From IMG/VR virus record IMGVR_UViG_3300030616_000506, positions 32,001 through 96,000 of that record: a DNA stretch of 64,000 nucleotides; one strand, written 5' to 3'. Source of the DNA: a virus. The notes under the pieces are model-generated. The model was not told the DNA's origin and made no database searches. It saw only the letters and a list, made by a program, of their open reading frames with translations. This document shows positions 8,701 through 64,000 of the stretch, piece after piece (within the stretch, counting starts at the first letter, position 1; every line of letters begins with the position of its first letter). The position numbers and the translations under genes were made by a program.

Positions 8701-9155
8701 CAGATTTAATTTTATCTCGATCAACTGATTCAGGTCAAACTTGGACTAATGACTCCTCAAAACATCTGCTATATTCTATAGGATGGAATTATGATAATGT
8801 AAGAGGAGAGGCAGAATCTGATACTATAGATAAATATGGAAAACATTTTTATAAAGTTAATGAAAATTTATTAAATACATACGTTGATTGTGAAAATTAT
8901 GCAGAAAGATTAATGGATACCTATCAAAGTGGAATATCTACTGGAGAAATAACTATAGATGGAAGAACGGATGTAGATATAAAGACTAAATTTAGATACA
9001 GTGGTACAAATCTAGATCTAAAGGATAAATTTGTTATATCTCAATATGAGCAGATATTTGATAAAGATGGATTCAGAACTAAAATAATATATGGAGAAGC
9101 TCCTTATGATATAGCCAGAAAGGTGGCTAACCTAGAATCTGAGGTGTATGAATAA
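5703..9155 (+). CDS. Tail hub/Tal-like protein with inserted beta-sandwich (putative carbohydrate-binding) modules
   Basis: Directly after TMP (TAATG overlap); N-terminal hub-like segments (FDGYVNRI, YSFFVDSDKVLNY, RNSILVIG) and C-terminal TIDKYGKH...AERLM...GEITIDG flank a Ser/Gly/Tyr-rich insert. Confidence 0.7.
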   Translation: MVSTYSVIFNSGQGTQFEYEPGGNVDYFTITNSDQSYYQNASLRIHNLSTDNEGYLDLNNTLKIYIDNELEFDGYVNRIQKSLEGVRVYDIQAIGRTYDLWRFITSSNTKYNSKYSSYIVSSLVHDYCSGNGVYISPPKIGSTLGSYINEITFSDMEIGSCIGRMAQMDGYSFFVDSDKVLNYYQPKLSPQFTVDESDVIEMSPHEKSDDSMRNSILVIGSVEYEKYSENTESPDGYYYISGHNKSDGAISDATYIAQRMKIPNNLHFDRLSSVKLYVDRSSGDNTPYYLKGSIRKDDDGSPSSNSTIFPVSNAFVSSDSMKFIGTDIMSPPDWTPYYSYPNPDSIDISGGQTIWLVFNYDGASSDKYWKLAYSNLSNLSYGEDPDGNGLKITNDPNLVGTLSAPYSGSIPYKKMEGLGDKSCGKCGNTSYWIGGEYGILGPTNRMYGTTFTVGTIADNSRYLLSGVSIYCFISGLNGDEIIKQVIYTLDDDDKPKDVLITKSLAVGEGDVMPSGGINDADWFWFPFSTNTYLEGGRKYALVYSGQTSGSTAAYTFAEDRAFNIPVSSSFSDPYVGGKLYRINSAQDSNTGELDSTYIYFNISSTAYPYNYGSIDYDSSHEHIIFHVSSVGLSPQDGYTSGSIRYKEFGITGGGITTDLGEFIISCNIENYTGGNYTSQPKSDAYEKYHSKLIFGLFDPTSPGGNDYNPTMGFEFNLDLSSQRKLIYNETTTVGTQGFYGAYWHAQTFTSDFPFILTDLYSYTKKMLGGTITFWAFIEKTDASHHPDGNPLASGSVTTSNGNFLFHRHNMNNNIYISANMEYAIVLKCEHGDTSNCPAYGKNINVSNPYEDGSCYVTTDGGSSWQLYTSWASWPASYDDMPFKLYGFVDKAVRPVLCTNIDDSTPQNPQYVTGDWFATGAKTYKCQLDGSNFLFYIDGSLKQTWDVSNVTLNGNYKFGAGNEYDWSGFRFILVDGAGCKYSSGTIGEISGNIKYISVPATDLILSRSTDSGQTWTNDSSKHLLYSIGWNYDNVRGEAESDTIDKYGKHFYKVNENLLNTYVDCENYAERLMDTYQSGISTGEITIDGRTDVDIKTKFRYSGTNLDLKDKFVISQYEQIFDKDGFRTKIIYGEAPYDIARKVANLESEVYE

Positions 9156-9562
9156 TGGGAACTTATACTGATGGTCATGGTTTGAAGATTTATTTTTCTG
9201 GAGTTGCATATCCTAATCATTATATAGAATGTTGGTGTAAGAGATGGGATGAAAATGATTATGATATTATTATTGAAACTTTTTTAAGCTCTGGTGCTAG
9301 GGATGCCCTATTTAGTAATGTAGTTCCTGGATCTCTAAGAGAATATAGCAATTCTTTAGGATGGGTAATTAATTTAGATGGTACATTCTCAAGATCATCT
9401 AATACCTTAATATTTGAACCTCAACATGGATATGGTATATCTAGTTTGAGATCTAGAAAAATAGGTATAGTTAAAAATATTTCAGATACCTTTATAAATT
9501 CAAATAAATTTGATGTAAAAATAGAATCTAAGTGGAAAAGATCTTGGAGTGATTTCTCTTGA
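9155..9562 (+). CDS. Virion protein, 'RWD' paralog 1 (possible distal-tail-like)
   Basis: CWCKRWDENDYDIIIETFL...PG...NTLIFEP...KIE; homologous to 9559-9939 and 16289-16831. Confidence 0.6.
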   Translation: MGTYTDGHGLKIYFSGVAYPNHYIECWCKRWDENDYDIIIETFLSSGARDALFSNVVPGSLREYSNSLGWVINLDGTFSRSSNTLIFEPQHGYGISSLRSRKIGIVKNISDTFINSNKFDVKIESKWKRSWSDFS

Positions 9563-9939
9563 ATGATTTAATAATTAGTGGTAACTCTTGTTACATAAAG
9601 TGTAAATGCTCTAGATGGGATGTACAAAACTATAATGTTATTATAGAAACTTGGCTAAATAAATCCAATTATGAAGATTTAAGGGATAGTGTAAGACCGG
9701 GTGCAGTAGGAGAGTTATATAATATTCTAGGTAGACCTAGATACTACGATAAATCTTGGAGATCCTATAATACTTTATGGATATATCCTGACACTACAAG
9801 TAATTCTAATTTAAAGAATATGAGGGATGGTAATACTTTGATATATGTTAAGAATATTAATAGTTCACCGGTTGCTGGTGCATCTGGTTGGATAAATATT
9901 AAAATTGAAGGAATGATTAGCGGACAAGGTGCTTTATAA
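9559..9939 (+). CDS. Virion protein, 'RWD' paralog 2
   Basis: CKCSRWDVQNYNVIIETWL...RPGAVGELYNILGRPRYYDK...IKIEGMISG; TTG start overlapping the previous stop. Confidence 0.65.
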   Translation: MNDLIISGNSCYIKCKCSRWDVQNYNVIIETWLNKSNYEDLRDSVRPGAVGELYNILGRPRYYDKSWRSYNTLWIYPDTTSNSNLKNMRDGNTLIYVKNINSSPVAGASGWINIKIEGMISGQGAL

Positions 9940-10025
9940 TGTCAGGTATTGAAGTTATAGGACCATCTCATAAATATATTAAAACTAATAAATCCCCTTA
10001 CAAAAAACTTATAGAGGTAGTATAA
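9939..10025 (+). CDS. 28-aa mini-protein MSGIEVIGPSHKYIKTNKSPYKKLIEVV
   Basis: Fills the gap exactly with TAATG overlaps at both ends; loosely resembles the Lys-rich C-terminal tails of the next two genes. Confidence 0.55.
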   Translation: MSGIEVIGPSHKYIKTNKSPYKKLIEVV

Positions 10026-10615
10026 TGAAAGAAAAACTATATGAATATAATGATTTAGGTGCGATGGTAATTCCTGCATATTTATCTGGAAGTAAATGGT
10101 GGGGTCAAACTATAACCATAGGAAATGTAGGTACAAATGAAGACCATTATCTTACTGCATTAAAAATAACATTCCAAAAAAACAGTAATCCAAATGGAGA
10201 TTGTACTATTAGTGTTAGAAATGTTGATGGAGATGGATTACCAACTGGTGATGATTTAACTTCCACATCACTTAGCTGTAGTGATTTTCCAACTGATAAT
10301 AATGTATCAACTAAATTGGAATTTGATAATAATATAAAATTAAAGAAGGATACATCTTATGCCTTTATATTTAGAGCTCCAGAAGCAGATACCTCAAATA
10401 ATTTAAATATGGCATATAAACCAGCTGACTATGGTGGAGGGTGTTTTTTAGAATCATCTGATGATGGAGAATCTTGGTCCAAAGTTGACGAGGGTGTATC
10501 TGATACTGAATTTTGGGAATATGGAACTGTAGGATATGAAACAAAATTCATCAAAGTTCCAGGAAAGAAAATTAAATTTAATAAAGTTTCTAATAAAGGA
10601 TTTAAAATAGGATAA
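10025..10615 (+). CDS. Virion/adhesin protein, single beta-sandwich module with Lys-rich C-terminal tail
   Basis: GQTITIG...YAFIFRA...SSDDGESW resembles the modules in 5703-9155; ends KFIKVPGKKIKFNKVSNKGFKIG. Confidence 0.6.
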   Translation: MKEKLYEYNDLGAMVIPAYLSGSKWWGQTITIGNVGTNEDHYLTALKITFQKNSNPNGDCTISVRNVDGDGLPTGDDLTSTSLSCSDFPTDNNVSTKLEFDNNIKLKKDTSYAFIFRAPEADTSNNLNMAYKPADYGGGCFLESSDDGESWSKVDEGVSDTEFWEYGTVGYETKFIKVPGKKIKFNKVSNKGFKIG

Positions 10616-10619
10616 AATT

Positions 10620-10667
10620 ATGTTGGATTCAATTGAAATTTATATATCAGGAACAGGTGCTTTATAA
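10620..10667 (+). CDS. 15-aa mini-ORF MLDSIEIYISGTGAL (possible relic of an RWD gene 3' end)
   Basis: Ends ...ISGTGAL-TAATG, like ...ISGQGAL-TAATG at 9939; coupled to the start at 10667. Confidence 0.4.
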   Translation: MLDSIEIYISGTGAL

Positions 10668-11755
10668 TGCCAGATGCATATGAATACTTTACGGCACCAG
10701 CAAACTCCTTTGGAATAAAGGAAGCTAAATTTATTAAGTGGCCATATTTCTGGAATCTCCTTCACAATAATGCTGTATGGCAAATGGAGGGATGGAATCC
10801 AGTAACTGAAGAGTGGCAGGATAACTATGAAGGTACTAATCTAAATAACTGGTTAGATATAGATTTAGCACCAAATGAAGATGGATCTCAGGAAAAGATT
10901 ACTTTATCCTTTACATCTCCTTATACAACCAAATATAGATTTGGATTTGCATTCAATCTTAGAGTTAAACAATACATAGATAATAGTGGTAATCATCAAT
11001 ATACTCTCACTATCCCTACATCTGATGATGAAGAGGATGAAGAGTATGAGATAATATTTGATTGGTCTGATGTAGTTCCCTTAATACAGACTGGAACTAT
11101 TACAGTAACTCATGGTATTAAAGAAGTTGGTGGTAAGAATTATTTCTGGGTAAAATTAACAGGAACTAGTAATTTAGCTGAAGGAAATACATTTGTTATT
11201 GATCCTTGGTTTGGTAGTCAAGCAGAAGGAGGAACTATTGCTAGTATAGAGGATACTTTATATTCATCTTATGTTCAGATGGCTGCTGTAGATTCTATTG
11301 CTAATAGTATTACAGTACGTATAGCTACTGGAACATATGCTAAGGGAGTTAAATGTGCAATTTATGACTCTTCTCTTAATAAAATAGCTGAGACAGAGAG
11401 CATTAGTGCATTGAGGGATATTGATTGGTATACTTTTGAATTTGATATACCACCTGAATTAACGGCTAGTGCTTGGTATTATATTTGTGTTCTTGGGGAC
11501 GGTGGCTCTGGTAATAATTATGGTTATTATGCAACAAGTGGTGGTTGGGGAGTTTGGTCAGAATCTGAAAGTTATCCAACTATTCCTGCAACACTTGGGA
11601 AGGATTCAGAAAAAGATTCAAATGGCATTTTTAATATTTATTGTACTTATACTGAAATTAGTGGAGAAGAAACTTCTCCAGTCAAAGTAAATAAAGTTCA
11701 AGGTAAATTTGTTAAATTAAATAAAGTTAGTGGTAGAAAAATTAAAATAGGATAA
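10667..11755 (+). CDS. Virion/adhesin protein, two domains, Lys-rich C-terminal tail
   Basis: Tail-module context; VIDP linker then jelly-roll-like domain (VKCAIYD...WYTFEF...WYYICV); ends VKVNKVQGKFVKLNKVSGRKIKIG. Confidence 0.6.
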   Translation: MPDAYEYFTAPANSFGIKEAKFIKWPYFWNLLHNNAVWQMEGWNPVTEEWQDNYEGTNLNNWLDIDLAPNEDGSQEKITLSFTSPYTTKYRFGFAFNLRVKQYIDNSGNHQYTLTIPTSDDEEDEEYEIIFDWSDVVPLIQTGTITVTHGIKEVGGKNYFWVKLTGTSNLAEGNTFVIDPWFGSQAEGGTIASIEDTLYSSYVQMAAVDSIANSITVRIATGTYAKGVKCAIYDSSLNKIAETESISALRDIDWYTFEFDIPPELTASAWYYICVLGDGGSGNNYGYYATSGGWGVWSESESYPTIPATLGKDSEKDSNGIFNIYCTYTEISGEETSPVKVNKVQGKFVKLNKVSGRKIKIG

Positions 11756-11805
11756 AATTATGATGGATTCATTGGATAAAATATTTTAAGAATAGAGGTA
11801 ATTAA

Positions 11806-14541
11806 ATGGCAAGTACATGGTATTCTAGTATGAGCTCTGGATCGGTGATCCACTATACTAATTGGAATAATATGGTTGATACCATATGGTGTCAAGGTGG
11901 TATTAGCGGAAGCTATGTTGGCCACTCAAGTAATACTACTACTGCTCATGGATTAGATTCCTATGCAGGCAATACTAGTCTAGTAACTCTAGGTACTGTA
12001 ACTACAGGTACTTGGAATGGTACTGCTGTTGATAGTAATTATATAACATTAGCATCTGGTGAACAATATCATTCTGCTTATATGTCGGGTAGTAAGTACA
12101 CTAATGCTTATCTATCAGGTCATTATTATACTAGAGCTTATCAAAGTGCTCAGATTGCATCTTATGGTACATCTGATGTTGATATGAGTAATCTAATAGC
12201 TAGTACAAATGCAATAACTAGATTTGCAGATTCATCTTCTATACAAACTAAATTTTTATTAAGTGGAGAAACCTTAAATGCTATATCTGCTAATAGAATA
12301 TGGGCTGGTACCGGTTATATTTCTGCACAAACTGGTATATATGCTTATTTTATATCAGCCGAAAACACTAATTTAACAGGAACTGGTATATCTGATATAG
12401 TTGAGGATACCACTCCACAACTTGGAGGTGATTTGGATGCTAATTTAAAATCCATATACAATGCAACTAGTATATCAAGTTCATCAATATCTGGAGGTTC
12501 AATAATAACTAATTCTATAGGAATAGGTACAATAAATCCATCTGCATCTATTCATATAAGATATGGATATGCTCAAGGATTACCAGTTTTAGGTACTGAT
12601 GCTAATAAAGGTTTATTAATTCAAAATAATACTGATGGAACTTCTATTGCCTCTATGACTTTAATAGGAGGTGATGGAGCTGATGCTGGTGGTGGTGCTG
12701 CAAAAATACAATTCGGTGATAATGGAAATGATGATCAGGGATATATTACTTATGAGAATGCTACAAATTCATTTAAAATAGGTGCTAATCACGGTACTAG
12801 ATTAGTCTTATCTGGCAGTAAATTATATGTAGGTGGATCAAATACAGCTTCTTATCCACTACAAGTAAATGGCTCCACATATTCCACTGCATATTCAGGT
12901 GGTGTATATGGAGATGATGCAGATCATATATTCAAAAAAGCAGGAAATCAAATATTTAAGATAAACCAAGAAGCTAATGCATATAATCACACTAATTTAT
13001 ATGGATCTGATGATACTGGAGAATTTTTATATATATATGCTAATACTAAGGATGGTTACCCTAAAATACAACTTCAAGGAAGTGGAGGTACCTATATATG
13101 GCTGAAGTCTGGAGCAGCTTCTAGAGGTCTTTATATAGCAGATGATCTTAGAGGTCAATTAATTAGAATACATGCTACTGGAGGAACTACCGATACAACT
13201 AATAAAATAATAGGTGTTGGAACTGCTGATAGACTCTTTATAGGAGGAGCTAATAAATCTTCTCCCTATATATTAATTGGTAAAAATGAAGCAAGCGAAG
13301 GTATAGAATATAATGCTGAAGGAGATCACATCTTTAAAGTTGATGGAAATAATAGATTCAAAATAGATGATGTATATATATCAACATCTACTGGTTTATA
13401 TGCAGACTGGATCTCTGGTAATAATAGTAATTTATCAATGGCTCCTGGTGGCTCAGAGGGTCAAATACAATATAATAATACTACTATGGGAGGAGCTGAC
13501 GCTTTATACTGGGATGATACAACAAATAGATTAGGTGTTGGAACTGCAAATCCATCAGCTGCAGTTCATATAGCTAGTGGAACTGCAGAGGGATTAACCG
13601 GTTTGGCTGGAAGACAAACTGGTTTATTAATACAATCTAATGAAGATGCATCTAAAAAAGCTTATATTACTTTAATTGGTGGTGATGGAGCCGGAGGAGG
13701 AGCAGGTGGTGGATCCATAGAATTTGGTGATAGTGATAGTATATCTCAGGGATCTATAACTTATGCTAATGCAGATGATGAAATGAATTTTAGTGCTGAT
13801 AATGTTAACAGTATGAATTTAGCAAAACAAAAATTATATGTTGGTGGAGCAGTCACACCAAATTATACTCTACATGTTGGTGGTACTACTCATTCAGTAG
13901 TATATTCAGGTGGGGTATATGGTGATGAAACAGATCATATGTTTAAAAAAGCTGGAAATCAAATACTTAAAATAGATGACTCTGGAGATTATACACTATT
14001 ATATGGTAAAGATGCTACTACTAATAGTTTAAAGATATATGCAAATTCAGTTGATATAAATCCTCATATAGAAGCTCATGGAAGCTCTGGATTTTATGTA
14101 TATATACCATCTGGGTCATCAAATGGATTTTTTATGGTACAACCCAGTGGGGAGGCAAATTCTCAATTATTTAAATTTTATAAAAAGGATGCTGATAGAA
14201 CCTGTTATTTAGAGGGAACAGCAGGTAATCCAGATTATGATATACTGATTAGACCTAGACCTGGAGAACCTAGTATGAGATTAGATACTGTGGATGATAC
14301 AATAGAATTTCAAGTCGGTGGTAATGATAGGTTTAAGATAGATAACACTTATATTTCAACTTCTACAGGTTTGTATGCTTATTGGATATCTACTAATTCT
14401 AATGGTATGATAAGCTCATTTGATGGAGAATCTAATAAAATAGCTGTAGTTAAATCATCTGAAGATAAAATAGTATTTAGAGATATTGTATGTACTAAAA
14501 CTGATGTTGTTGTTGCTAATAATAGTGTTGTAATGGCTTAG
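11806..14541 (+). CDS. Tail fibre / receptor-binding protein with internal duplication
   Basis: Fibre motifs SLVTLGTVTTGTWNGTAV, DIVEDTTPQLGGDLD, IGIGTINP/LGVGTANP, PGGSEGQIQYNN; GAGGT RBS. Confidence 0.8.
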   Translation: MASTWYSSMSSGSVIHYTNWNNMVDTIWCQGGISGSYVGHSSNTTTAHGLDSYAGNTSLVTLGTVTTGTWNGTAVDSNYITLASGEQYHSAYMSGSKYTNAYLSGHYYTRAYQSAQIASYGTSDVDMSNLIASTNAITRFADSSSIQTKFLLSGETLNAISANRIWAGTGYISAQTGIYAYFISAENTNLTGTGISDIVEDTTPQLGGDLDANLKSIYNATSISSSSISGGSIITNSIGIGTINPSASIHIRYGYAQGLPVLGTDANKGLLIQNNTDGTSIASMTLIGGDGADAGGGAAKIQFGDNGNDDQGYITYENATNSFKIGANHGTRLVLSGSKLYVGGSNTASYPLQVNGSTYSTAYSGGVYGDDADHIFKKAGNQIFKINQEANAYNHTNLYGSDDTGEFLYIYANTKDGYPKIQLQGSGGTYIWLKSGAASRGLYIADDLRGQLIRIHATGGTTDTTNKIIGVGTADRLFIGGANKSSPYILIGKNEASEGIEYNAEGDHIFKVDGNNRFKIDDVYISTSTGLYADWISGNNSNLSMAPGGSEGQIQYNNTTMGGADALYWDDTTNRLGVGTANPSAAVHIASGTAEGLTGLAGRQTGLLIQSNEDASKKAYITLIGGDGAGGGAGGGSIEFGDSDSISQGSITYANADDEMNFSADNVNSMNLAKQKLYVGGAVTPNYTLHVGGTTHSVVYSGGVYGDETDHMFKKAGNQILKIDDSGDYTLLYGKDATTNSLKIYANSVDINPHIEAHGSSGFYVYIPSGSSNGFFMVQPSGEANSQLFKFYKKDADRTCYLEGTAGNPDYDILIRPRPGEPSMRLDTVDDTIEFQVGGNDRFKIDNTYISTSTGLYAYWISTNSNGMISSFDGESNKIAVVKSSEDKIVFRDIVCTKTDVVVANNSVVMA
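12514..14391 (+). repeat. Tandem ~290-aa domain duplication in the fibre (about 12514-13416 and 13528-14391)
   Basis: Both copies contain GLLIQ..LIGGDGA..FGD..QG.ITY..KLYVGG..YSGGVYGD..DH.FKKAGNQI..RFKID..YISTSTGLYA.WIS. Confidence 0.9.
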
Positions 14542-14573
14542 ATTTAATAAAATTAATAAAGGAGATAATAATT

Positions 14574-14672
14574 ATGAATAATAAAAATAATAAAAGGAAT
14601 GTATATGATGTTTATTTTGGAATTGATAGAATAATGATTTATAATATGGACTTATTAAAAGGAGGTGGCTGA
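14574..14672 (+). CDS. Possible 32-aa mini-protein
   Basis: AAGGAG upstream of ATG; MNNKNNKRNVYDVYFGIDRIMIYNMDLLKGGG fills the gap. Confidence 0.3.
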   Translation: MNNKNNKRNVYDVYFGIDRIMIYNMDLLKGGG

Positions 14673-14674
14673 TA

Positions 14675-15280
14675 ATGGTTCATCATTCTGGTTTAACTGG
14701 AACTCAACTCCATAATCCTAGAGGTATTCAGTATGCTGATGATATATTAGATTGGGATTCAAATCGTTGGTTTAATTCTGGTATTATATGGAATGGTAGT
14801 TACTGGGTTCCTAAATCAAGTAGTAATACATCAGAAGGAGGATCAGCTACTCTAGATGAATTAACCGATACTAATCTAACTACTCCAGCTAGTGGAGAAA
14901 CTTTAGTATATAAAGCTGATGATGAAAAATGGGAAAATGAGCTTCCATCTCTTACTTATAATGTGGCTAACGTTATACTATATTCAGGACAATATTTAAG
15001 TATGGCTAGATATTCTACTAGTGAATGTACTTATATATGGCAAGCATCTGTTTGTAATTCAGGTGGAGCATCCGTTAGTGGACTAAATATAGAATTATTA
15101 TGTAATGATACTAGTGTTTATAAAACATCATCTGCTATTTTACAGAAAGGATATCCTCTTGATAAAGCTCAACCAGGTGAAATAGAAATTAGAATAATGC
15201 ATTCAGGTGGACATACTTATGGAAGTCAAGAACATCAACTTGAATATGGTATGGGTTTTATGCAAGTATCTGTTTATTAA
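14675..15280 (+). CDS. Minor tail/fibre-associated protein
   Basis: GGAGGTGG RBS; LDELTDTNLTTPASGETLVY....KWEN fibre-type repeat; Ser-Gly rich. Confidence 0.6.
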   Translation: MVHHSGLTGTQLHNPRGIQYADDILDWDSNRWFNSGIIWNGSYWVPKSSSNTSEGGSATLDELTDTNLTTPASGETLVYKADDEKWENELPSLTYNVANVILYSGQYLSMARYSTSECTYIWQASVCNSGGASVSGLNIELLCNDTSVYKTSSAILQKGYPLDKAQPGEIEIRIMHSGGHTYGSQEHQLEYGMGFMQVSVY

Positions 15281-15295
15281 TCTAGGGAGTAATAT

Positions 15296-15568
15296 ATGAC
15301 TAATATTAATTATCCAGAATCAGTAACTAACAATTATGAGAAAGCAGCTTTTCTTTATAGAGTTCAGGAATTATTGAGATTAGAATTCAATAATAAGGGT
15401 AAACAATATAGAGAGAAGAAAATCTCAGATGAGGATTGGAAATCCTATAAAAAGGAGTGGGATAATAAACATCTAAAGATAGTTAATGCTATGTTAGAAA
15501 TTAGATCTCAACTTCAAAATGATGATAGTTTAGAGGTTGATCTAGAAAATATCTTTACTGGTAAATAA
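15296..15568 (+). CDS. Hypothetical helical protein (possible fibre assembly chaperone)
   Basis: GGGAG RBS; charged helical 90 aa in the tail module. Confidence 0.55.
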   Translation: MTNINYPESVTNNYEKAAFLYRVQELLRLEFNNKGKQYREKKISDEDWKSYKKEWDNKHLKIVNAMLEIRSQLQNDDSLEVDLENIFTGK

Positions 15569-15570
15569 AT

Positions 15571-16263
15571 ATGCCTATAGAAGATTTTCATAAACTTTAT
15601 GTTGAACTAGATCCTAGTAGTAAAATAACTAAGAGTCACACTAGAGTAACCGCTAATTCTTTACCTAGAAATGAAGTTGCATATGTCTATAAAGACTTTG
15701 GTAAAGATTATTTTAAAGATATTATCCATCTTTTTGAAATATTTATAGGGACATATGATGCTAATTCAGAGTGTGTATTATATGGAGTAGAAAATAACTT
15801 AGGAGATTATGCCCAATGTACAGCTGCAGGTCTTGCTGGGTTCCATGCTTTAATTATAAATACAGAAAATAAGAGATATCTTTATTTTAAGGACAATGAT
15901 TCTCACAGTGATTCTAATGCTACTATTGGAATAAATACCCTTTATTATCCTAAGATAACTAGAGTTGGTACCACAGTTTCAATGGTTATTTATACAGATG
16001 CTGCTAGAACTAATATTCTTGATACTGTATCTATAACTACATCAGCTGAAGGATTGAGATATTTATATCCTTTAATGGGAGATAGTGGAGATCAAGCTGA
16101 TCAAATCTTTAATGGATATTCTCAGAATTATGATTTACAAGAAGGACATCCTTATACAAAGGGAGGAACCTACTTAGGTTCAATGAATTATGGTGATGGA
16201 ACCCATTTGAGATCATCTAATAATGGGAATAAGGATAATCTAATAGGCACTTGTTACCAATAA
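15571..16263 (+). CDS. Hypothetical virion protein, possibly ConA/lectin-like fold
   Basis: Beta-rich pattern (LYYPKITRVGTTVSMVIYTD); tail-module context. Confidence 0.5.
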   Translation: MPIEDFHKLYVELDPSSKITKSHTRVTANSLPRNEVAYVYKDFGKDYFKDIIHLFEIFIGTYDANSECVLYGVENNLGDYAQCTAAGLAGFHALIINTENKRYLYFKDNDSHSDSNATIGINTLYYPKITRVGTTVSMVIYTDAARTNILDTVSITTSAEGLRYLYPLMGDSGDQADQIFNGYSQNYDLQEGHPYTKGGTYLGSMNYGDGTHLRSSNNGNKDNLIGTCYQ

Positions 16264-16278
16264 CTTTTTATATATATA
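16256..16278 (+). promoter_or_regulatory. Possible archaeal BRE-TATA-like element upstream of 16289
   Basis: accaataactttttatatatata; spacing to ATG is somewhat short and the genome is AT-rich. Confidence 0.2.
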
Positions 16279-16288
16279 AGTAATTGAT

Positions 16289-16831
16289 ATGGCATCTGAT
16301 AAGCAAAATTATCCCAATGCTGGTCATAAAGCATTTCCCTATTTTTTTACTACTGATGAAGATGATGTTAATCCCATAGAGGGATTTTGGTTAAAGGAGC
16401 CTTACTCTCCACCCTTTGTGGAGGATTATAAATATAACTATGATCTAGCTATATTCTATAATTCTTTAGCAGGAAATGATTTTGTTGATTGTAGATGTAG
16501 CAGATGGGATATTCAGAATTATAATGTTATAGTGGAGACATGGTTAAATTCTACAGACTTAAAGAGTATTAGAGATAATATAAGACCTGGAGCTGTAGGT
16601 GAACTATATAATATATTAGGAAGACCTCGATATTACGATAAAACCTGGAGAGGTAAAAATACTCTAAGGTTATTACCTACACCATCATCTGCTAGTATGA
16701 GAACTAGTAATCTAAAAAATATGAGAGATGAGACATTAATATATGTTAAAAATATAACCACTCATCCCATAAATGAAAATTGGACTGAAATAAAAATAGA
16801 GGGAATGATTAGCGGAACTAATAGTTTATAA
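16289..16831 (+). CDS. Virion protein, 'RWD' paralog 3 with N-terminal extension
   Basis: CRCSRWDIQNYNVIVETWL...RPGAVGELYNILGRPRYYDK...IKIEGMISG, very similar to 9559-9939. Confidence 0.7.
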   Translation: MASDKQNYPNAGHKAFPYFFTTDEDDVNPIEGFWLKEPYSPPFVEDYKYNYDLAIFYNSLAGNDFVDCRCSRWDIQNYNVIVETWLNSTDLKSIRDNIRPGAVGELYNILGRPRYYDKTWRGKNTLRLLPTPSSASMRTSNLKNMRDETLIYVKNITTHPINENWTEIKIEGMISGTNSL

Positions 16832-58626: not shown

Positions 58627-59196
58627 TTAGACCTTATTCCTATAAAGTTTCGGGTCTATAACATCCTTTGCTTTATCAATATCCAAATCTGGATAGTATA
58701 TCCTAAGTTCATTTAATTCACTTGGATAGTTACCATTATTAAATAGTCCTCTATGGGATATTAATATCAATTTTACATCGTCTCTTTTTCTCATTTCATC
58801 TAATATATTATTTCTAAGTTTAATTAACGCTAATCTTAAATCTTCTTTATCAGCTTCATACTCTTTGGAAGCCATTTTTAGTGTCGATTCAATTATTTCC
58901 TTTATATTTCTATCCATAAATATTACTTCATATTTACCCTTTGGTAGATATTTAAGACCATAAGCAGTTATTTTAATAAATTTACCTTTATATTTATCGA
59001 ATGGAAAATCCCCATTTTTTAGTTTATTTATTATTTTACCCTTCTCTAGTTCATAGTATCCTTTAGGATTATTCTTATCAGCTTCTCTAGAATCATCATA
59101 AGCTATCGGTAATCCTCCAGCTTTTAGTATTTGCATCATTAGACTAGTTCCAGATCTCTCTATACCAGATACGATATAGTTAGTCTTCTCGTTCAT
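58627..59196 (-). CDS. Sulfotransferase family protein
   Basis: IVSGIERSGTSLMMQIL, NPKGYYE, IDPKLYRN. Confidence 0.85.
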   Translation of the reverse strand: MNEKTNYIVSGIERSGTSLMMQILKAGGLPIAYDDSREADKNNPKGYYELEKGKIINKLKNGDFPFDKYKGKFIKITAYGLKYLPKGKYEVIFMDRNIKEIIESTLKMASKEYEADKEDLRLALIKLRNNILDEMRKRDDVKLILISHRGLFNNGNYPSELNELRIYYPDLDIDKAKDVIDPKLYRNKV

Positions 59197-59516
59197 ATCT
59201 TACTCACCATTAATTTATCTATATACTCTTGATATGTGATATTATTTAAATCCTCTAAATTATTTATAGCTTCTAAAGCTTCATATATATCTATTGTATA
59301 TTCTCCATCTTTAAATTTAATTTTAATATTTTCTCCACTGGATACGGGCTGTCCTAGTAATTTCAAATCTATGTTAGCGTAAGGATTATCCTCAGCACTC
59401 ATTTCTATATTGTATGCAGTCATCCCCCATAATTTAAATGCAAATTTAGATCCATTATCACCCATAGTTATAATCATGTAATCTCCGTTCATTTGAATTG
59501 ATCTGTCCTTCTTCAT
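59193..59516 (-). CDS. Hypothetical protein
   Basis: ORF with ATGA overlap; no motif recognised. Confidence 0.55.
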   Translation of the reverse strand: MKKDRSIQMNGDYMIITMGDNGSKFAFKLWGMTAYNIEMSAEDNPYANIDLKLLGQPVSSGENIKIKFKDGEYTIDIYEALEAINNLEDLNNITYQEYIDKLMVSKI

Positions 59517-59610
59517 AATCTTACCGCCATTATAGCTTCTCCATATTCATTTATATCCATATGTATAACTATTTGGAGAAGTAGTTGTAGTATAATATGC
59601 AGTAATACCT

Positions 59611-59967
59611 TTAATTTCTACCATACGAATCTTCTAACCTTACAATATCTTCCTCTTTACATTCTCCGATTTGTATTTCTACAAATATAAAGTCTTTATC
59701 ATCTGATAAATTTTCTGCTCGGTGAATCATTCCTCTCGGAATATCTATATTATATCCCTTACTACAATACACTTTATCTTCATCTCTTGTTATTATACCT
59801 TCTCCTTCTACCACTATCCAATATTCATCTCTCTTTCTATGAACTTGCTTACTGAGTCTCTGATTTGGTTTAATTACAATCCTCTTAACCTTATAATTAG
59901 GTTTTTCTAAGATTAGTGCGTATGATCCCCACGGTTTAAGAGTTATCTCTTCACAATATATTTCCAT
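59611..59967 (-). CDS. Cupin, mannose-6-phosphate isomerase type II C-terminal domain
   Basis: KPWGSY, VKRI, LS.Q.H..R.E.W, HR.EN, EIQ.G...EEDIVRLED.YGR. Confidence 0.92.
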   Translation of the reverse strand: MEIYCEEITLKPWGSYALILEKPNYKVKRIVIKPNQRLSKQVHRKRDEYWIVVEGEGIITRDEDKVYCSKGYNIDIPRGMIHRAENLSDDKDFIFVEIQIGECKEEDIVRLEDSYGRN

Positions 59968-59969
59968 AT

Positions 59970-60131
59970 TTATCTTCCAAATGTTATAATTAAAATTGCC
60001 ATTATTATCTTATCAACTATCCATAAAGCTATAAGCCATGAGGTTTTTTTATCTATAGATGCTGTATCCTCTACAATGTCATCAACATCAACTGATATTT
60101 CTTCTATTTGTCCATTTTCTAGTTTATTCAT
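59970..60131 (-). CDS. 53-aa single-TM protein (not in ORF track)
   Basis: MNKLENGQIEEISVDVDDIVEDTASIDKKTSWLIALWIVDKIIMAILIITFGR. Confidence 0.6.
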   Translation of the reverse strand: MNKLENGQIEEISVDVDDIVEDTASIDKKTSWLIALWIVDKIIMAILIITFGR

Positions 60132-60265
60132 ATTTCATACTCTTGTACTGGATAAGGTCCTAATATCATATCTCTCTCACAGAAACACATAGGACATCTT
60201 GGTGGTGCATAAGTCGGAACTGTGAAAAACTCTTCACATCTTTTACAATAATACTTATATTCCAT
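60128..60265 (-). CDS. 45-aa zinc-finger microprotein (not in ORF track)
   Basis: YYCKRCEEFF......PRCPMC; overlaps both neighbours. Confidence 0.7.
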   Translation of the reverse strand: MEYKYYCKRCEEFFTVPTYAPPRCPMCFCERDMILGPYPVQEYEI

Positions 60266-60570
60266 TAATATCTCTTCCTATGTAATTTAGGTCTCTTTAT
60301 ATTCTTAATCATTTTCTTATTTATTTCGTTCTCTATATCTATATCTAGATATCCACAAAGATCAAATAATCTTATAAAGGTATCAGCTATCTCTTCCTTA
60401 AAGTTATCCTTATCTCCAAGTCTATCTGCTTCACAAGCTTCTCCTAGCTCTGTAACTATAAGCATTAATTTAGTTGGTATATCATTAGATGCATTCCAAA
60501 ATCCTTTTTCCTTAGCTATTCTATGACATTCTATTACATAATCATTTATATCATACATTATTCCCACCAT
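60265..60570 (-). CDS. MazG-like nucleotide pyrophosphohydrolase (start probably 60558)
   Basis: EKGFW, LMLIVTELGEACEA, EEIADTFIRLFDL, K...N..RP..H.K.Y. Confidence 0.88.
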   Translation of the reverse strand: MVGIMYDINDYVIECHRIAKEKGFWNASNDIPTKLMLIVTELGEACEADRLGDKDNFKEEIADTFIRLFDLCGYLDIDIENEINKKMIKNIKRPKLHRKRY

Positions 60571-60725
60571 CTATTATTACAATGATTGCATTCAAATAAT
60601 CTTTCTTCAATTAATTTCCATATAACTCTATGTACCCATCTTCTTCTATATTTATTTAATTTCTTTATATTTCTAGATCCACACTCTGGGCACTTCTTTT
60701 TATAGAAATTCCATATCTTGCTCAT
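60558..60725 (-). CDS. 55-aa basic zinc-ribbon protein (not in ORF track)
   Basis: KKCPECGS......LFECNHCNNRWWE; TAATG overlaps at both ends. Confidence 0.72.
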   Translation of the reverse strand: MSKIWNFYKKKCPECGSRNIKKLNKYRRRWVHRVIWKLIEERLFECNHCNNRWWE

Positions 60726-60907
60726 TATTTCCAAGTTTCCTTATCTAGTTCTTCCTCTACCTCTGGATATCTCAATAATAATTCTGTGATTATAGCTTCT
60801 ATAGTTTCAAAGTTATCGTTGTCTTTCAGTATTTTATATTCATCTCTAACTAACTCTAATTCATATACTGCTCTTAATATATGTCTATCAATATCTATAT
60901 TACTCAT
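60725..60907 (-). CDS. Hypothetical protein (probable start 60907)
   Basis: AAGGAG upstream of MSNIDIDRH. Confidence 0.55.
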   Translation of the reverse strand: MSNIDIDRHILRAVYELELVRDEYKILKDNDNFETIEAIITELLLRYPEVEEELDKETWK

Positions 60908-61025
60908 TTTCTTTCTCCTTCCATTTACATCTTTTATTCTCTTCATCCCACCATATACAATCATTAAATGACTGACCACATTCTAATCCGTAGCCAGTCA
61001 CAAAACTAATATCACAAAGTGGCAC
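60900..61025 (-). CDS. 41-aa Cys-rich microprotein (GTG start, not in ORF track)
   Basis: MPLCDISFVTGYGLECGQSFNDCIWWDEENKRCKWKEKENE; AGGAGA upstream. Confidence 0.45.
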   Translation of the reverse strand: MPLCDISFVTGYGLECGQSFNDCIWWDEENKRCKWKEKENE

Positions 61026-61752
61026 TCATATCTCCTAAGCCCACTAAGCCATCTCTATCATGAGCTAACCACTTAATTAACTCATTTTTATTTGGATCAG
61101 AACTATTATACCAATAATTAATCCAATAATTATATTTAGCTACTGATGCACTTAGTGCCTGCTTAAAGGTATACCCATCACATAGGGCTTTCCATAATTC
61201 ATTTGATGATTCATAGAATCCCTTAGCATATTTATCATCGTATGGATCTCTCATTATGGATCCTTCTGTCAACCAAGTCCATGATATATTAAATCCAGCA
61301 TAAGATTTAGCTCCAGTAGCTATCATTGCTGGTCCAAGTAGATTTGCTGTTAAGCATGATAACAAATAAATAATTTTACCTTTTGTCTTAGCACATTCTA
61401 TTGATGTAAATATCGGTTTTTCATCATCACCTGTATATATACTGGGAGCTCCATGTCCAAAACCATGAATGCTAGCTGGTTTATATTTATCTATTAATTC
61501 ATATATCTTAGTCTTCTTAGCATCAGTTGCTCTTATGTCTATTATATCCCATTTATTCTTACTATCTGCATCGATAACTGAATGATACAAACCATTATAA
61601 CCATGAGTACAGTAATGACAATTTTTTGGTCTAATAAACATCATATTATTTTTCTCTGTATCATCTGGTTCTTTAGTCTTATTATACCACCAATATAAGA
61701 ATAATACTGCACCTACTATAACTGCTCCTATTAAGACTTCTATCCAACCCAT
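61012..61752 (-). CDS. Membrane-anchored clan CD (caspase/gingipain-fold) cysteine protease-like protein B
   Basis: N-terminal TM helix; HGFGHG and IYLLSC His-Cys dyad; GAKSYAGF; LVGLGD. Confidence 0.75.
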   Translation of the reverse strand: MGWIEVLIGAVIVGAVLFLYWWYNKTKEPDDTEKNNMMFIRPKNCHYCTHGYNGLYHSVIDADSKNKWDIIDIRATDAKKTKIYELIDKYKPASIHGFGHGAPSIYTGDDEKPIFTSIECAKTKGKIIYLLSCLTANLLGPAMIATGAKSYAGFNISWTWLTEGSIMRDPYDDKYAKGFYESSNELWKALCDGYTFKQALSASVAKYNYWINYWYNSSDPNKNELIKWLAHDRDGLVGLGDMSATL

Positions 61753-61762
61753 AGATATACCT

Positions 61763-61966
61763 CTATTGATTTTTTAATTTCTTGAGTTCATCTTGCAGTT
61801 TCTTCTCTGCCATCATGAATTCAATACCTTCATCGGTTTCATTTTCCACAGCTTCTAATATTTGTTCAGGAGTCCACTCTCTACCCATAGTATATACAGA
61901 TATAAGTTCTCCTTCATCATATTTCTTTTTTATATCTTCCTTCAATTTATTCCAGGATATTCTCAT
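61763..61966 (-). CDS. Small partner protein B (homolog of 62668-63006)
   Basis: W..L...I..KY.EG.L...G..WTPEQ..E.V.....G; AAGGAGG RBS. Confidence 0.7.
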   Translation of the reverse strand: MRISWNKLKEDIKKKYDEGELISVYTMGREWTPEQILEAVENETDEGIEFMMAEKKLQDELKKLKNQ

Positions 61967-61984
61967 TATATCCCTCCTTAAATC

Positions 61985-62671
61985 TTAATTTAAAACATTT
62001 ATGAATATATTTTCTACATCCGTAACTACTTCTTCATTATCATCCACTTCAATTAACTTTGCATTCATATTTCCTAAAAATACTAATGTATCCCTATTCC
62101 ATATTAGATGTGCAGGAGAGTACCCTTGTTGTATCAATTGATCTATACAATAATCATATTTATCCAACATTCTGTCCTTAGCCTCATCGAAAGTGTCTCC
62201 ATCCATTAGTGCTATCCACAACTCACACTCTGCATCTCTGTATTCCCATTTAGTTGATGCCCAGAATATGTCATTATGTCCACAGAATGCTACTCCTCCA
62301 TTATTAATTATATAACAACCTATTCCATTATCTGCTCCAGTGTGGCAAGATATAAAGTGAACTATTCTATCTGGACTTAAGATATCCATATGTCCTTGGT
62401 CACCACACCACCACACCATTTTAGTATCATGTCCACTTATAGTCCATTTACTTCCATGTCCTTCTTCCAGTATTCCTCTAGGATTAGTATCACTAACAGA
62501 TTGTCTTACATTAGGTCCAACTGCGTTCTCTTTAGTTATATTTATTATATCCCATAATCCTAAATTTTCTGCATAAGGTTTGACATAATATTGTATCCAA
62601 TCATGTATGTACTTACATGCATTGTCTTGATATGGACACACAAATGTCATCTTTGAATTATCACTATTCAT
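61985..62671 (-). CDS. Clan CD (caspase/gingipain-fold) cysteine protease-like protein A
   Basis: LEEGHG and VHFISC His-Cys dyad; GGVAFCGH; WNRDTLVFLGN; paralog of 61012-61752. Confidence 0.75.
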   Translation of the reverse strand: MNSDNSKMTFVCPYQDNACKYIHDWIQYYVKPYAENLGLWDIINITKENAVGPNVRQSVSDTNPRGILEEGHGSKWTISGHDTKMVWWCGDQGHMDILSPDRIVHFISCHTGADNGIGCYIINNGGVAFCGHNDIFWASTKWEYRDAECELWIALMDGDTFDEAKDRMLDKYDYCIDQLIQQGYSPAHLIWNRDTLVFLGNMNAKLIEVDDNEEVVTDVENIFINVLN

Positions 62672-63006
62672 ATATAATCCAATATATATTCTATAAAGTT
62701 ATTTTCTATACTTAGTAGTTTTATACCAAATCTACTCCTTTTTCTGATTTCTTCCATTTGTTGGTCAGGAGTAAAGGTACCTTCACTACAAGTTATATCC
62801 ATAAGTTTTCCATCTGCGTATCTCATTTCTAGTCTCAATGTTAATAAATCCCAGTTAGGTTCATGTGTTAACGGTAAATCTATATCTTCTTTATATAAAT
62901 CATTAGCTGAATAATATGTATCCTCTATTTTCAATATAGGATAATTATCTTCTTTCAATTTTCTTAAAATTTTCATAACTTCCTTATCTATCATGTCCAA
63001 CCTCAA
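62668..63006 (-). CDS. Small partner protein A
   Basis: W.LL..RL..RYADG.L...EGTFTPDQ..EEI......G; ATGA-coupled to protease A. Confidence 0.65.
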   Translation of the reverse strand: MRLDMIDKEVMKILRKLKEDNYPILKIEDTYYSANDLYKEDIDLPLTHEPNWDLLTLRLEMRYADGKLMDITCSEGTFTPDQQMEEIRKRSRFGIKLLSIENNFIEYILDYI

Positions 63007-63277
63007 TAGTATATGTAGTATTTTCTTCTATACCGTTCCATTCACTAGTTATATGTTCTCTATAACCCCAGAACCACCAATGTTTTAGATTATAAGAGCA
63101 ATCAACTACATCTCCTTTCTTTCTTATCCTAGAGATAATTTTATATTTTTTAAATGGCCATATTAAAAACCATTCTCTCCAGTATATATCAAAGGGAACT
63201 TTAGAGGCAACTTTCTTTGGTGCCTCTACTTTACTTATCCATATTATTGGCATATTAATCTTATTTAATATAACCAA
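62984..63277 (-). CDS. Small Ig-like beta protein, basic and Trp-rich
   Basis: VEAPKKVASKVPFDIYW...YTIEVG parallels 63261-63572. Confidence 0.5.
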   Translation of the reverse strand: MVILNKINMPIIWISKVEAPKKVASKVPFDIYWREWFLIWPFKKYKIISRIRKKGDVVDCSYNLKHWWFWGYREHITSEWNGIEENTTYTIEVGHDR

Positions 63278-63572
63278 CTTCTAATACAACTTCTAATGTT
63301 TCTGTTATACCAGTATTAAATGTAACTACTTTATTTACTGTTCCACCAGATGGTATTGTTTCTTCCCAATTATCATAAGTAGTATCGGTATCATAAAGTT
63401 TACCGAAACAAGTATCCGTTGCACCATTATTTGTACAATCATATGATATATCGAAGGATTCTCCTGATTCTACTTCAGTTGGATAAGTTAAATTATTAAT
63501 ACTACAATTAGCATGTTGTATTATTGATATTGAAATATTTTTTGTATCCGTTATTACTTCTACCATATTCAT
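63261..63572 (-). CDS. Ig-like (CARDB-type) domain protein
   Basis: LTYPTEVESGESFDISYDCTNNG...IPSGGT...VVLEVG. Confidence 0.65.
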   Translation of the reverse strand: MNMVEVITDTKNISISIIQHANCSINNLTYPTEVESGESFDISYDCTNNGATDTCFGKLYDTDTTYDNWEETIPSGGTVNKVVTFNTGITETLEVVLEVGYIK

Positions 63573-63615
63573 TACTCCTATTTATTTTTCTTTATTGACA
63601 TTTAAACTTTCTTAC

Positions 63616-63813
63616 TTACTCTCTTGTTAATGTTGCTCCACATTTAGGACATTTTCTAGTATTACATGGTTCTGCCCATGTATGTTCAGTTTTATATCCA
63701 CAAGATGGACATACACAGTTTCCACCTGGTCCACTTCCAGGTTTATCTCCTTGTGGATATCTACCTCTACCTGGTCTTTGGAATCTAGTTCCTCTACCTC
63801 TTCTTGGTCTCAT
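63616..63813 (-). CDS. Small Arg/Gly-rich, multi-Cys metal-binding protein
   Basis: GPGGNCVCPSCGY..EH....PC...KCPKCGA.LTRE, a pattern I recall from archaea and anaerobic bacteria; AAGGAG RBS. Confidence 0.75.
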   Translation of the reverse strand: MRPRRGRGTRFQRPGRGRYPQGDKPGSGPGGNCVCPSCGYKTEHTWAEPCNTRKCPKCGATLTRE

Positions 63814-63849
63814 ATTTATTCTCCTTAAGTTTTATACATTAAACATAAA

Positions 63850-64000
63850 TTAGTCTTTTCCTAATTTACAAATTCTTGCAAACCAATAGTGATAGTTATA
63901 ATATAGTAATGTATTAAATATATTCCATACTATAGATGAGCTTATAGCCCATTCCCATTTCCAAGTATTTGCTGTTATTCCATAGAAGAAATACCAAAAT
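63850..64000 (-). CDS. 3' end of a small membrane protein (DUF2061-like), 5' truncated
   Basis: ...FWYFFYGITANTWKWEWAISSSIVWNIFNTLLYYNYHYWFARICKLGKD-stop. Confidence 0.5.
   Translation of the reverse strand, partial: FWYFFYGITANTWKWEWAISSSIVWNIFNTLLYYNYHYWFARICKLGKD

Follow-up and report, generated by a model that had tools for sequence, protein, structure and literature searches.

The stretch analysed here (the window) comprises 64,000 nucleotides (nt), bases 32001-96000 of the 144.5-kb linear IMG/VR virus record IMGVR_UViG_3300030616_000506. It carries two cassettes, A and B, each made up of a small gene followed by a gene for a predicted cysteine protease of clan CD. Clan CD proteases run key switches of the cell, among them the caspases, separase, the gingipains and the CHAT effectors of CRISPR and of cyclic-oligonucleotide-based antiphage signalling systems (CBASS). 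On a modest balance of probability, the two cassettes are cognate pairs of a conserved viral two-gene operon, in which a small alpha/beta partner protein is followed by a translation-coupled protease that it regulates, with envelope or surface proteins as the targets. The four open reading frames (ORFs) concerned were pointed out in an earlier reading made from the sequence alone (the sequence-only reading), and all of them exist on the minus strand: in order of transcription, partner A (62668-63006), protease A (61985-62671; 228 amino acids, aa), partner B (61763-61966; 67 aa) and protease B (61012-61752; 246 aa). Proteases A and B are paralogous, with 26% identity over 223 columns (E 1e-14), and so are partners A and B, with 22% identity (E 6e-6).

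Predicted fold and active site of the proteases

An AlphaFold2 model of protease A built from a 74-sequence alignment reached a predicted local distance difference test score (pLDDT) of 95.2 and a predicted template modelling score (pTM) of 0.88; a two-sequence alignment had given an unusable pLDDT of 37. Strands at residues 4-12, 41-46, 64-70, 103-107, 128-132 and 196-200 are flanked by helices in an alpha/beta/alpha arrangement, with the central, mostly parallel six-stranded sheet that is expected of clan CD. Only clan CD proteins stand at the top of a Foldseek search of the PDB (SAVED-CHAT, gingipain R, CED-3, caspase-7 and Csx29; E 1.8e-6 to 1e-4, probability 1.00). The VIA structural search returned SAVED-CHAT (8tl0) with Z 17.9, the gingipains RgpB (4ief) and Kgp (4rbm) with Z 15.7 and 15.4, separase with Z 12.8-14.5, legumain with Z 13.3 and metacaspases with Z 12.7-13.5, and its first 41 rows, spanning Z 8.9-17.9, are almost all proteins of clan CD fold.

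In protease A, G71-H72-G73 stands right after strand 64-70 and S108-C109 right after strand 103-107 (His72 codon 62456-62458, Cys109 codon 62345-62347). A His-Gly and a Ser-Cys are thus found in the order known from clan CD, each following a hydrophobic core strand as judged by strand position in the model. In protease B the two residues are His100 (codon 61453-61455) and Cys133 (codon 61354-61356). Both proteins contain the GHG and SC motifs and the (W/H).RD.LV.LG.M.A.L end described in the sequence-only reading, and the caspase/gingipain (clan CD) fold that it proposed is borne out by the top structural matches and by the position of His and Cys at the expected strand ends. Residues H72, G73 and C109 are the sole invariant columns of the 74-sequence alignment; among 201 full-length members of the family the Cys is kept in all 201 and the His in 196, the remaining 5 being interrupted by inteins. 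In addition, hhalign sets the GHG of the family on the catalytic SGHG of orthocaspases (Peptidase_C14). The modelled fold is that of clan CD (caspase/gingipain/CHAT) with an intact His/Cys dyad, and the protein is predicted to be a catalytically intact cysteine endopeptidase.

At least five relatives carry inteins placed 0-4 residues from GHG, at two insertion points, and several independent intein invasions of the viral protease are suggested. The carriers of LAGLIDADG-type inteins are P0006, P0088 and loci L060 (2681-4600), L061 (2705-4537), L075 (2687-4558) and L063 (3628-5271). Intein sites next to GHG are typical of functionally critical positions, and, together with the complete retention of the dyad, the inteins at the active site speak for strong selection on the activity. 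One relative has an additional insertion later in the protease domain.

Sequence relationships of the protease family

A word-indexed homolog search with protease A returned only protease A itself. When 1.84 billion cluster representatives (50% clustering) were searched exhaustively with a profile, 1,337 of them scored as relatives at E<=1e-3, and 572 did so at E<=1e-10. Neither protease A nor protease B has a significant match in Pfam, PHROGs, NCBIfam or PDB sequences. Peptidase_C25 (PF01364) is matched by neither of them at E<=1 and by none of the 74 aligned members at E<=0.01, the best being two members that reach E 0.016. CHAT (PF12770) is absent from the 25 families listed for the 74 members with the cut-off relaxed to E<=5, Peptidase_C14 (PF00656) has no Pfam match to the window proteases or to the 74 members, and no member matches any protease family of Pfam at E<=0.01. 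In a profile-profile comparison with nine cyanobacterial orthocaspases, the match is local, covering 37 columns at the catalytic His only (probability 64.5%, E 6e-5). Since links at the sequence level to named families are nearly absent, the protease is treated here as forming a new family inside clan CD that is separate from C25, C14 and CHAT. The literature searched on archaeal-virus proteases of caspase-like, gingipain-like or clan CD type contained no description of the protease-partner family.

Linkage of the partner gene to the protease gene

A hidden Markov model (HMM) of the partner was seeded with the two window partners and look-alikes in loci L008 and L010, and was iterated on the ORFs of 88 loci from which protease ORFs had been removed. 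Partner A scores E 2.8e-22 and partner B E 5.7e-20. Linkage was counted for the 71 distinct proteases whose contigs reach 250 nt or more upstream of the gene, a gap of <=50 nt being taken as adjacent. A partner lies upstream on the same strand of 62 of the 71 proteases, adjacent in 54 cases, often with overlapping ends, and within 3 kb in 8 more. No partner was detected for the other 9, of which 3 are artefacts of ORF-start calling that do have one. In the reverse direction the partner profile found 71 proteins, five of which were sampled on long contigs; in all five loci a 252-261-aa protein starts at or overlaps the stop of the partner and matches the protease HMM at E 1e-79 to 1e-86. The co-occurrence check that had been proposed with the sequence-only reading thus came out in both directions. 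In one protein, P0147, a partner-like domain (355-447) is fused behind the protease domain (26-218). The gene linkage is near-obligate, and the co-occurrence is of one small protein with one protease, as in an obligate pair. In three loci, two short partner paralogs stand in tandem before a single protease (L079, 634-1061; L084, 3376-3791; L080, 3-392).

The core of the partner is about 65 residues long, and its alignment reads as a helix, a beta-hairpin, a helix beginning with TPEQ and a final AEKKL helix; the long form of the partner adds an N-terminal repeat of the hairpin and a TPxE helix. Only L55 and G94 are nearly invariant. Of the motif that had been proposed as common to partners A and B, the columns W, L, Y, G, L, TP, Q, E and G are indeed shared, but the spacing given as W..L.....Y is two residues short. 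The partner profile found nothing below E 0.05 in PDB sequences, and only scattered single matches in Pfam, at E>0.05. One short and one long partner searched against the ESM Atlas gave only sub-threshold clusters of hypothetical proteins, and no structure. Matches of partner B to HTH_Tnp_1 (E 0.082) and phrog_1238 (E 0.007), and of partner A to Hepatitis_core (E 0.057), were regarded as noise. As claimed in the sequence-only reading, the system appears to be undescribed, no library model, solved structure or literature description having been found for the pair.

Two old subtypes

Short partners (66-80 aa) go with membrane-anchored proteases of about 245-285 aa, and long partners (105-134 aa) with proteases that are soluble or have long immunoglobulin (Ig)-like extensions. 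On the tree of the proteases, 5 changes account for the distribution of partner type, as compared with 18.8 when the labels are shuffled. Partner and protease have, as far as their sequences tell, diverged in parallel into two subtypes.

The window holds one cassette of each. Cassette B belongs by sequence to the short, membrane type. Protease B is near the family consensus, and the closest relative of the cassette is in L012 (protease 81% and partner 84% identical). A hydrophobic helix at about residues 3-23 of protease B is followed by NKTKEPDD, and protease A has no such helix; the expectation of a soluble protease A and an N-terminally transmembrane (TM)-anchored protease B is upheld. Protease A is very divergent, with an end branch of 2.45 in the tree, and lacks the DPYxDxYAxGF loop of the family, so that its specificity may differ. 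The nearest relatives of partner A are the long partners of L008, L033 and L056. When protease A was constrained to group with the L008/L033/L056 clade, the likelihood was better than that of the free search (approximately unbiased test, p-AU 0.72), and this placement is in line with the partner tree, and also with the gene order that L008 shares upstream. On these sequence comparisons, cassette A is orthologous to the long-type cassette of L008, a related virus of 116 kb, and evolves fast.

The arrangement had been described as a tandem duplication. Paralogy of the two cassettes stands, but a recent tandem duplication is rejected, as no similarity or repeats were found between them at the DNA level and they fall in two old subtypes. 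A 9.5-kb metagenomic contig (L063, 261-5271) mirrors the window, with one long-type and one short-type cassette 3 kb apart, which hints that the two types are not redundant.

Extent and expression layout of the module

Six tightly packed genes run on the minus strand from 63572 to 61012, predicting a 103-aa protein (63261-63572), a 97-aa protein (62984-63277), partner A, protease A, partner B and protease B. Partner A is of the long type and has 112 aa if read from the TTG at 63006, the start implied by the earlier coordinates. The ORF is confirmed but this start is not; the ATG at 62994 (108 aa) is likely to be the start because GAGG stands 7 nt upstream of it and because it matches the database protein P0156. 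The stop of the 97-aa gene overlaps the start of partner A, and the stop of partner A overlaps the start of protease A in ATGA. A Shine-Dalgarno-like AAGGAGGG is found 6 nt ahead of the ATG of partner B, and a Shine-Dalgarno-like GAGGT ahead of the ATG of protease B.

The 103-aa protein is probably a beta-sandwich and likely accessory. It has no Pfam or PHROG match. It shares 33% identity (E 1e-10) with residues 250-347 of P0003, where the domain is fused C-terminally to a protease of the family, and a homolog lies at the corresponding position in L008 (2870-3190). The 97-aa protein, which contains a WWFWGY motif, is the product of a syntenic accessory gene; its homolog in L008 is at 3195-3476, with gene order kept, and members of its cluster (c8) directly precede a long-type partner in 4 loci. 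Because L008 keeps the two small upstream genes in synteny, and because one of them has its counterpart fused to the protease in P0003, the module probably extends to 63572 and comprises six genes rather than four. In L008, the module is closely preceded by two tandem SGGLDS PP-loop paralogs (1556-2833; QueC/ExsB-like by eye) and closely followed by a glutaredoxin-like gene.

Viral and archaeal context

The record is that of a tailed virus, and a sequencing-run search found the stretch in two marine-sediment DNA data sets, one of which may be its source, and listed no RNA data set that contains it. The same record encodes eS17, an archaeal/eukaryotic ribosomal protein, above the Pfam cut-off; among the control genomes this family occurs in the four archaea only. 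Contigs seeded with the partner carry MCM-like AAA, AbrB/MazE-like, STIV_B116-like, HTH_45 and archaeal Pilin_N families. The eS17 gene and these archaeal-type families indicate an archaeal host, and the partner-protease pair is carried by viruses of archaea. Relatives of the protease are overwhelmingly on virus-like metagenomic contigs. A scan of 185,579 species genomes matched only three contigs of metagenome-assembled genomes, all short or virus-like, and used peptide patterns that divergent cellular homologs could escape. For a similar pair in CPR/DPANN genomes, which the sequence-only reading mentioned, the one pointer is a sub-threshold cluster of the ESM Atlas from the partner search, labelled Aenigmatarchaeota.

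Other genes of the window were noted. Tail genes, including one for a tape-measure-like protein, are on the opposite strand at 349-16831. An island of about 38 kb at 17004-55561 (minus strand) predicts sugar and phosphonate biosynthesis, with phosphoenolpyruvate mutase, epimerases and B12-radical SAM proteins. A 499-aa gene at 57103-58602 (minus strand) is one that we take, by our own reading, to be ribonucleotide-reductase-like. The context also holds a MazG-like gene and a family B DNA polymerase (listed with L003, 12858-15413, minus strand). Just upstream of the module, a 65-aa protein (63616-63813, minus strand) combines an Arg/Gly-rich N-terminus with a double CxxC zinc ribbon, for which the zinc-ribbon matches in Pfam are weak only. 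No Rfam family was matched on either strand of 58000-64000.

Architectures and gene neighbourhoods of the relatives

Of the 201 full-length proteases, 64 consist of the bare domain, about 84 close with one TM helix and a short basic tail, 6 are preceded by a TM helix at the N-terminus and about 50 carry a long C-terminal extension. The long extensions hold Big_3_5, PEGA, CarboxypepD_reg and InlB-B-repeat (Flg_new_2) domains. In about 20 members a Cys knot (C-x7-C-x3-GC-x-W-x4-C-H) lies between the protease domain and the TM helix. None of the 201 has a signal peptide. Many neighbours, and proteases themselves, end in GGGG/PPP, a TM helix and KKK.

In viral contigs of 14-22 kb the pair lies inside a conserved block of genes for TM, beta-sandwich and multi-Cys-knot proteins. 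In other contigs it follows a beta-helix tailspike-like gene, or precedes genes for CarboxypepD_reg, Big_3_5 or PKD proteins. The block is common to nine contigs (L015, L017, L019, L021, L023, L027, L029, L031 and L046) and comprises genes for a glutaredoxin-like 72-aa protein, an 86-aa protein, a 90-aa protein with 3 TM helices, a beta-sandwich protein of about 165 aa with an N-terminal TM helix, and Cys-knot proteins. It also comprises the partner, the protease, further Cys-knot and TM proteins and a 3-TM protein of about 235 aa. Judged by gene content, these nine contigs seem to represent a group of small, membrane-protein-rich viruses that has not been described. Neighbours in L017 (4910-8440) and L019 (2605-3393 and 4907-8351) are built of up to six Cys-knot repeats (C-x7-C-x3-GC-Y/W-W-Y-x3-4-C-H). 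These repeats are often preceded by N-x-S/T sequons, and some of the proteins end in a TM helix and a basic tail; none has a signal peptide, and one member of the family has a weak Pfam match to PSI (plexin repeat).

Possible roles of the pair

In the reading that we favour, the partner would be a dedicated subunit produced in step with the enzyme, most probably a prodomain-like chaperone or an inhibitor acting in trans, by comparison with securin-separase, staphostatin-staphopain and the LSAM domain of legumain. Until infection has reached the proper stage, the partner would either guide the protease or hold it in a folded yet latent state. After that, envelope or surface proteins of the host or the virus would be cleaved, by one protease copy in the cytosol and by the other at the membrane. 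The pair is associated with surface-type proteins that contain beta-sandwiches and Cys knots, which suggests that the targets belong to the envelope or the virion surface and not to the replication machinery.

Several observations weigh against this reading. The inhibitor or chaperone role is inferred from analogy, gene order and one fusion, and the partner has no detectable similarity to a known inhibitor, a prodomain or a solved structure in Pfam, PDB sequences or the ESM Atlas. The most divergent subclade of the proteases (L087, L089, L090 and L091) has no recognisable partner. In the window, the module sits amid genes for replication and nucleotide metabolism (ribonucleotide-reductase-like, MazG-like, family B DNA polymerase) and not among tail genes. 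Finally, the topology of the protease is ambiguous, as the cues conflict. Signal peptides are lacking, and this, like the distribution of charges behind the N-terminal helix of protease B, favours an enzyme on the cytoplasmic face, whereas the basic tails after C-terminal TM helices and the sequon-rich Cys knots of the relatives look extracellular, or would fit an internal viral membrane.

A more specific proposal, to which we attach only a small probability, is that the pair is a device for cleaving the S-layer or surface anchors. Kept latent by its partner and for the most part anchored in the membrane, the protease would be freed late in infection to open the protein envelope of the cell for virion exit, or would travel on the virion and open it on entry. 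How tailed archaeal viruses breach protein cell walls is an open question, and no equivalent of the holin-endolysin system is known for them outside pseudomurein-walled methanogens (2024 review, PMC10791045). If the proposal were true, the envelope-cutting pair would be a functional counterpart of the bacterial holin-endolysin system. The family is a concrete and testable candidate for the processing of envelope and surface proteins in archaeal viruses.

Other roles can be envisaged for the partner. It may be the substrate or cargo, a latent effector cleaved by the adjoining protease, as Csx30 is by the CHAT protease of Craspase and gasdermins are by caspase-like neighbours. Strict adjacency, the layout for coupled expression and CHAT as the best structural match are what such a system would show, and a conserved Arg and a Gly-Arg in the partner core could act as a P1 site. 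However, the core is only about 65 residues long, lacks features of a TM or pore-forming protein and shows no invariant motif at which it might be cleaved, some loci have two partner paralogs per protease, and the pair lies in viral gene blocks of structural type and not in defence islands; we regard this role as unlikely. The partner could instead be a substrate-recognition adaptor that presents the target, like the split B1 (RRE) and B2 (cysteine protease) of lasso-peptide maturation. This would suit the small helix/beta-hairpin/helix pattern of the alignment, the apparent internal repeat of hairpin and TPxE helix in the long form, as in a binding module, and the way in which partner type tracks protease architecture. 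It is distinctly unlikely, given that the partner matches neither PqqD/RRE nor another family of Pfam at E<=1 and that no gene resembling a precursor peptide is conserved next to the pair.

Two further explanations concern the pair as a whole. A small first gene with stop/start overlap is the usual layout of type II toxin-antitoxin (TA) modules, and the presence of two cassettes in one genome and carriage by mobile elements would also suit a TA-like or exclusion module, with an upstream antidote and a downstream protease toxin serving addiction, host shut-off or superinfection exclusion. Yet no DNA-binding family was detected in 32 partners; about 40% of the protease family is membrane-anchored and about 25% has long Ig-like arrays, which is atypical for such toxins; and several virus groups keep the order of the genes that surround the pair, whereas TA modules usually move alone. 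An explanation of this kind is very unlikely. Scarcely probable at all is a transpeptidase, similar to GPI8, the legumain ligase or a sortase, that would remove a C-terminal Gly/Pro-rich motif, TM helix and basic tail from neighbouring viral surface proteins and attach them elsewhere. PIG-K, the subunit of glycosylphosphatidylinositol (GPI) transamidase, has a caspase-fold domain and a C-terminal TM helix and is among the structural matches (Z 10.4-11.5), and C-terminal ends of the GGGG/PPP-TM-KKK type are frequent in the proteases and their neighbours. PIG-K is nevertheless well below CHAT and the gingipains in Z, protease A is a soluble protein, and C-terminal signals of this type did not turn up beside the module in the window. 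A protease regulated by its partner and directed at envelope or surface proteins remains the preferred explanation of the pair.

Comparison with known systems

The best structural match is CHAT, represented by the SAVED-CHAT of CBASS/type III CRISPR signalling (8tl0) and the TPR-CHAT Csx29 of type III-E Craspase (7zoq, 8eey), with Z 17.9, a root mean square deviation of 2.5 over 178 residues and a Foldseek E of 1.8e-6. The two share a His/Cys dyad on a caspase fold, and the viral protease, like Craspase, is encoded beside small dedicated partners. It differs in lacking a Pfam CHAT match and a SAVED, TPR or other sensor domain, and in being virus-borne and not part of a host defence island. Csx30 and Csx31 are unrelated to the partner as far as sequence searches reach.

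The gingipains RgpB and Kgp of Porphyromonas gingivalis (MEROPS C25) match over 188-192 residues (Z 15.7 and 15.4), and in some relatives, as in gingipains, an Ig-like or beta-sandwich domain comes right after the catalytic domain. However, protease A, at 228 residues, is about half as long as the gingipain catalytic domain (420-450), and the secreted layout is not shared, the viral proteases having no signal peptide, no N-terminal prodomain and no C-terminal domain for type IX secretion (T9SS). The N-termini of the window proteases begin with the first core strand (A) or a TM helix (B). A separate gene may provide the viral equivalent of the gingipain prodomain.

Giant eukaryotic virus genes of caspase or metacaspase type, and an uncharacterised protein of Myoviridae, were matched by Foldseek in BFVD at E 7e-6 to 1e-3, with TM-scores of only 0.45-0.52 and 10-15% identity, so that there is no close viral relative in BFVD. 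These proteins match Peptidase_C14 or C11, are mostly from viruses of eukaryotes and are not described with a coupled partner gene.

Separase belongs to clan CD and is itself a strong structural match (Z 12.8-14.5). Separase with securin, staphopain with staphostatin and legumain with LSAM all follow the logic of one protease and one dedicated, small, co-expressed protein. The C-terminal position of LSAM in legumain is matched by that of the partner-like domain in the P0147 fusion. The partner has no sequence similarity that could be found to securin, staphostatin or LSAM, and staphopain itself is of clan CA. What is known from these systems is the clan CD fold and the logic of a dedicated small partner; what is new is a clan CD family with an obligate partner of its own, a large branch of more than 1,300 clusters at 50% identity that is carried mainly by uncultivated viruses of archaea. 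For protease biochemistry, it offers a compact caspase-fold enzyme of 228 aa together with a ready candidate regulator.

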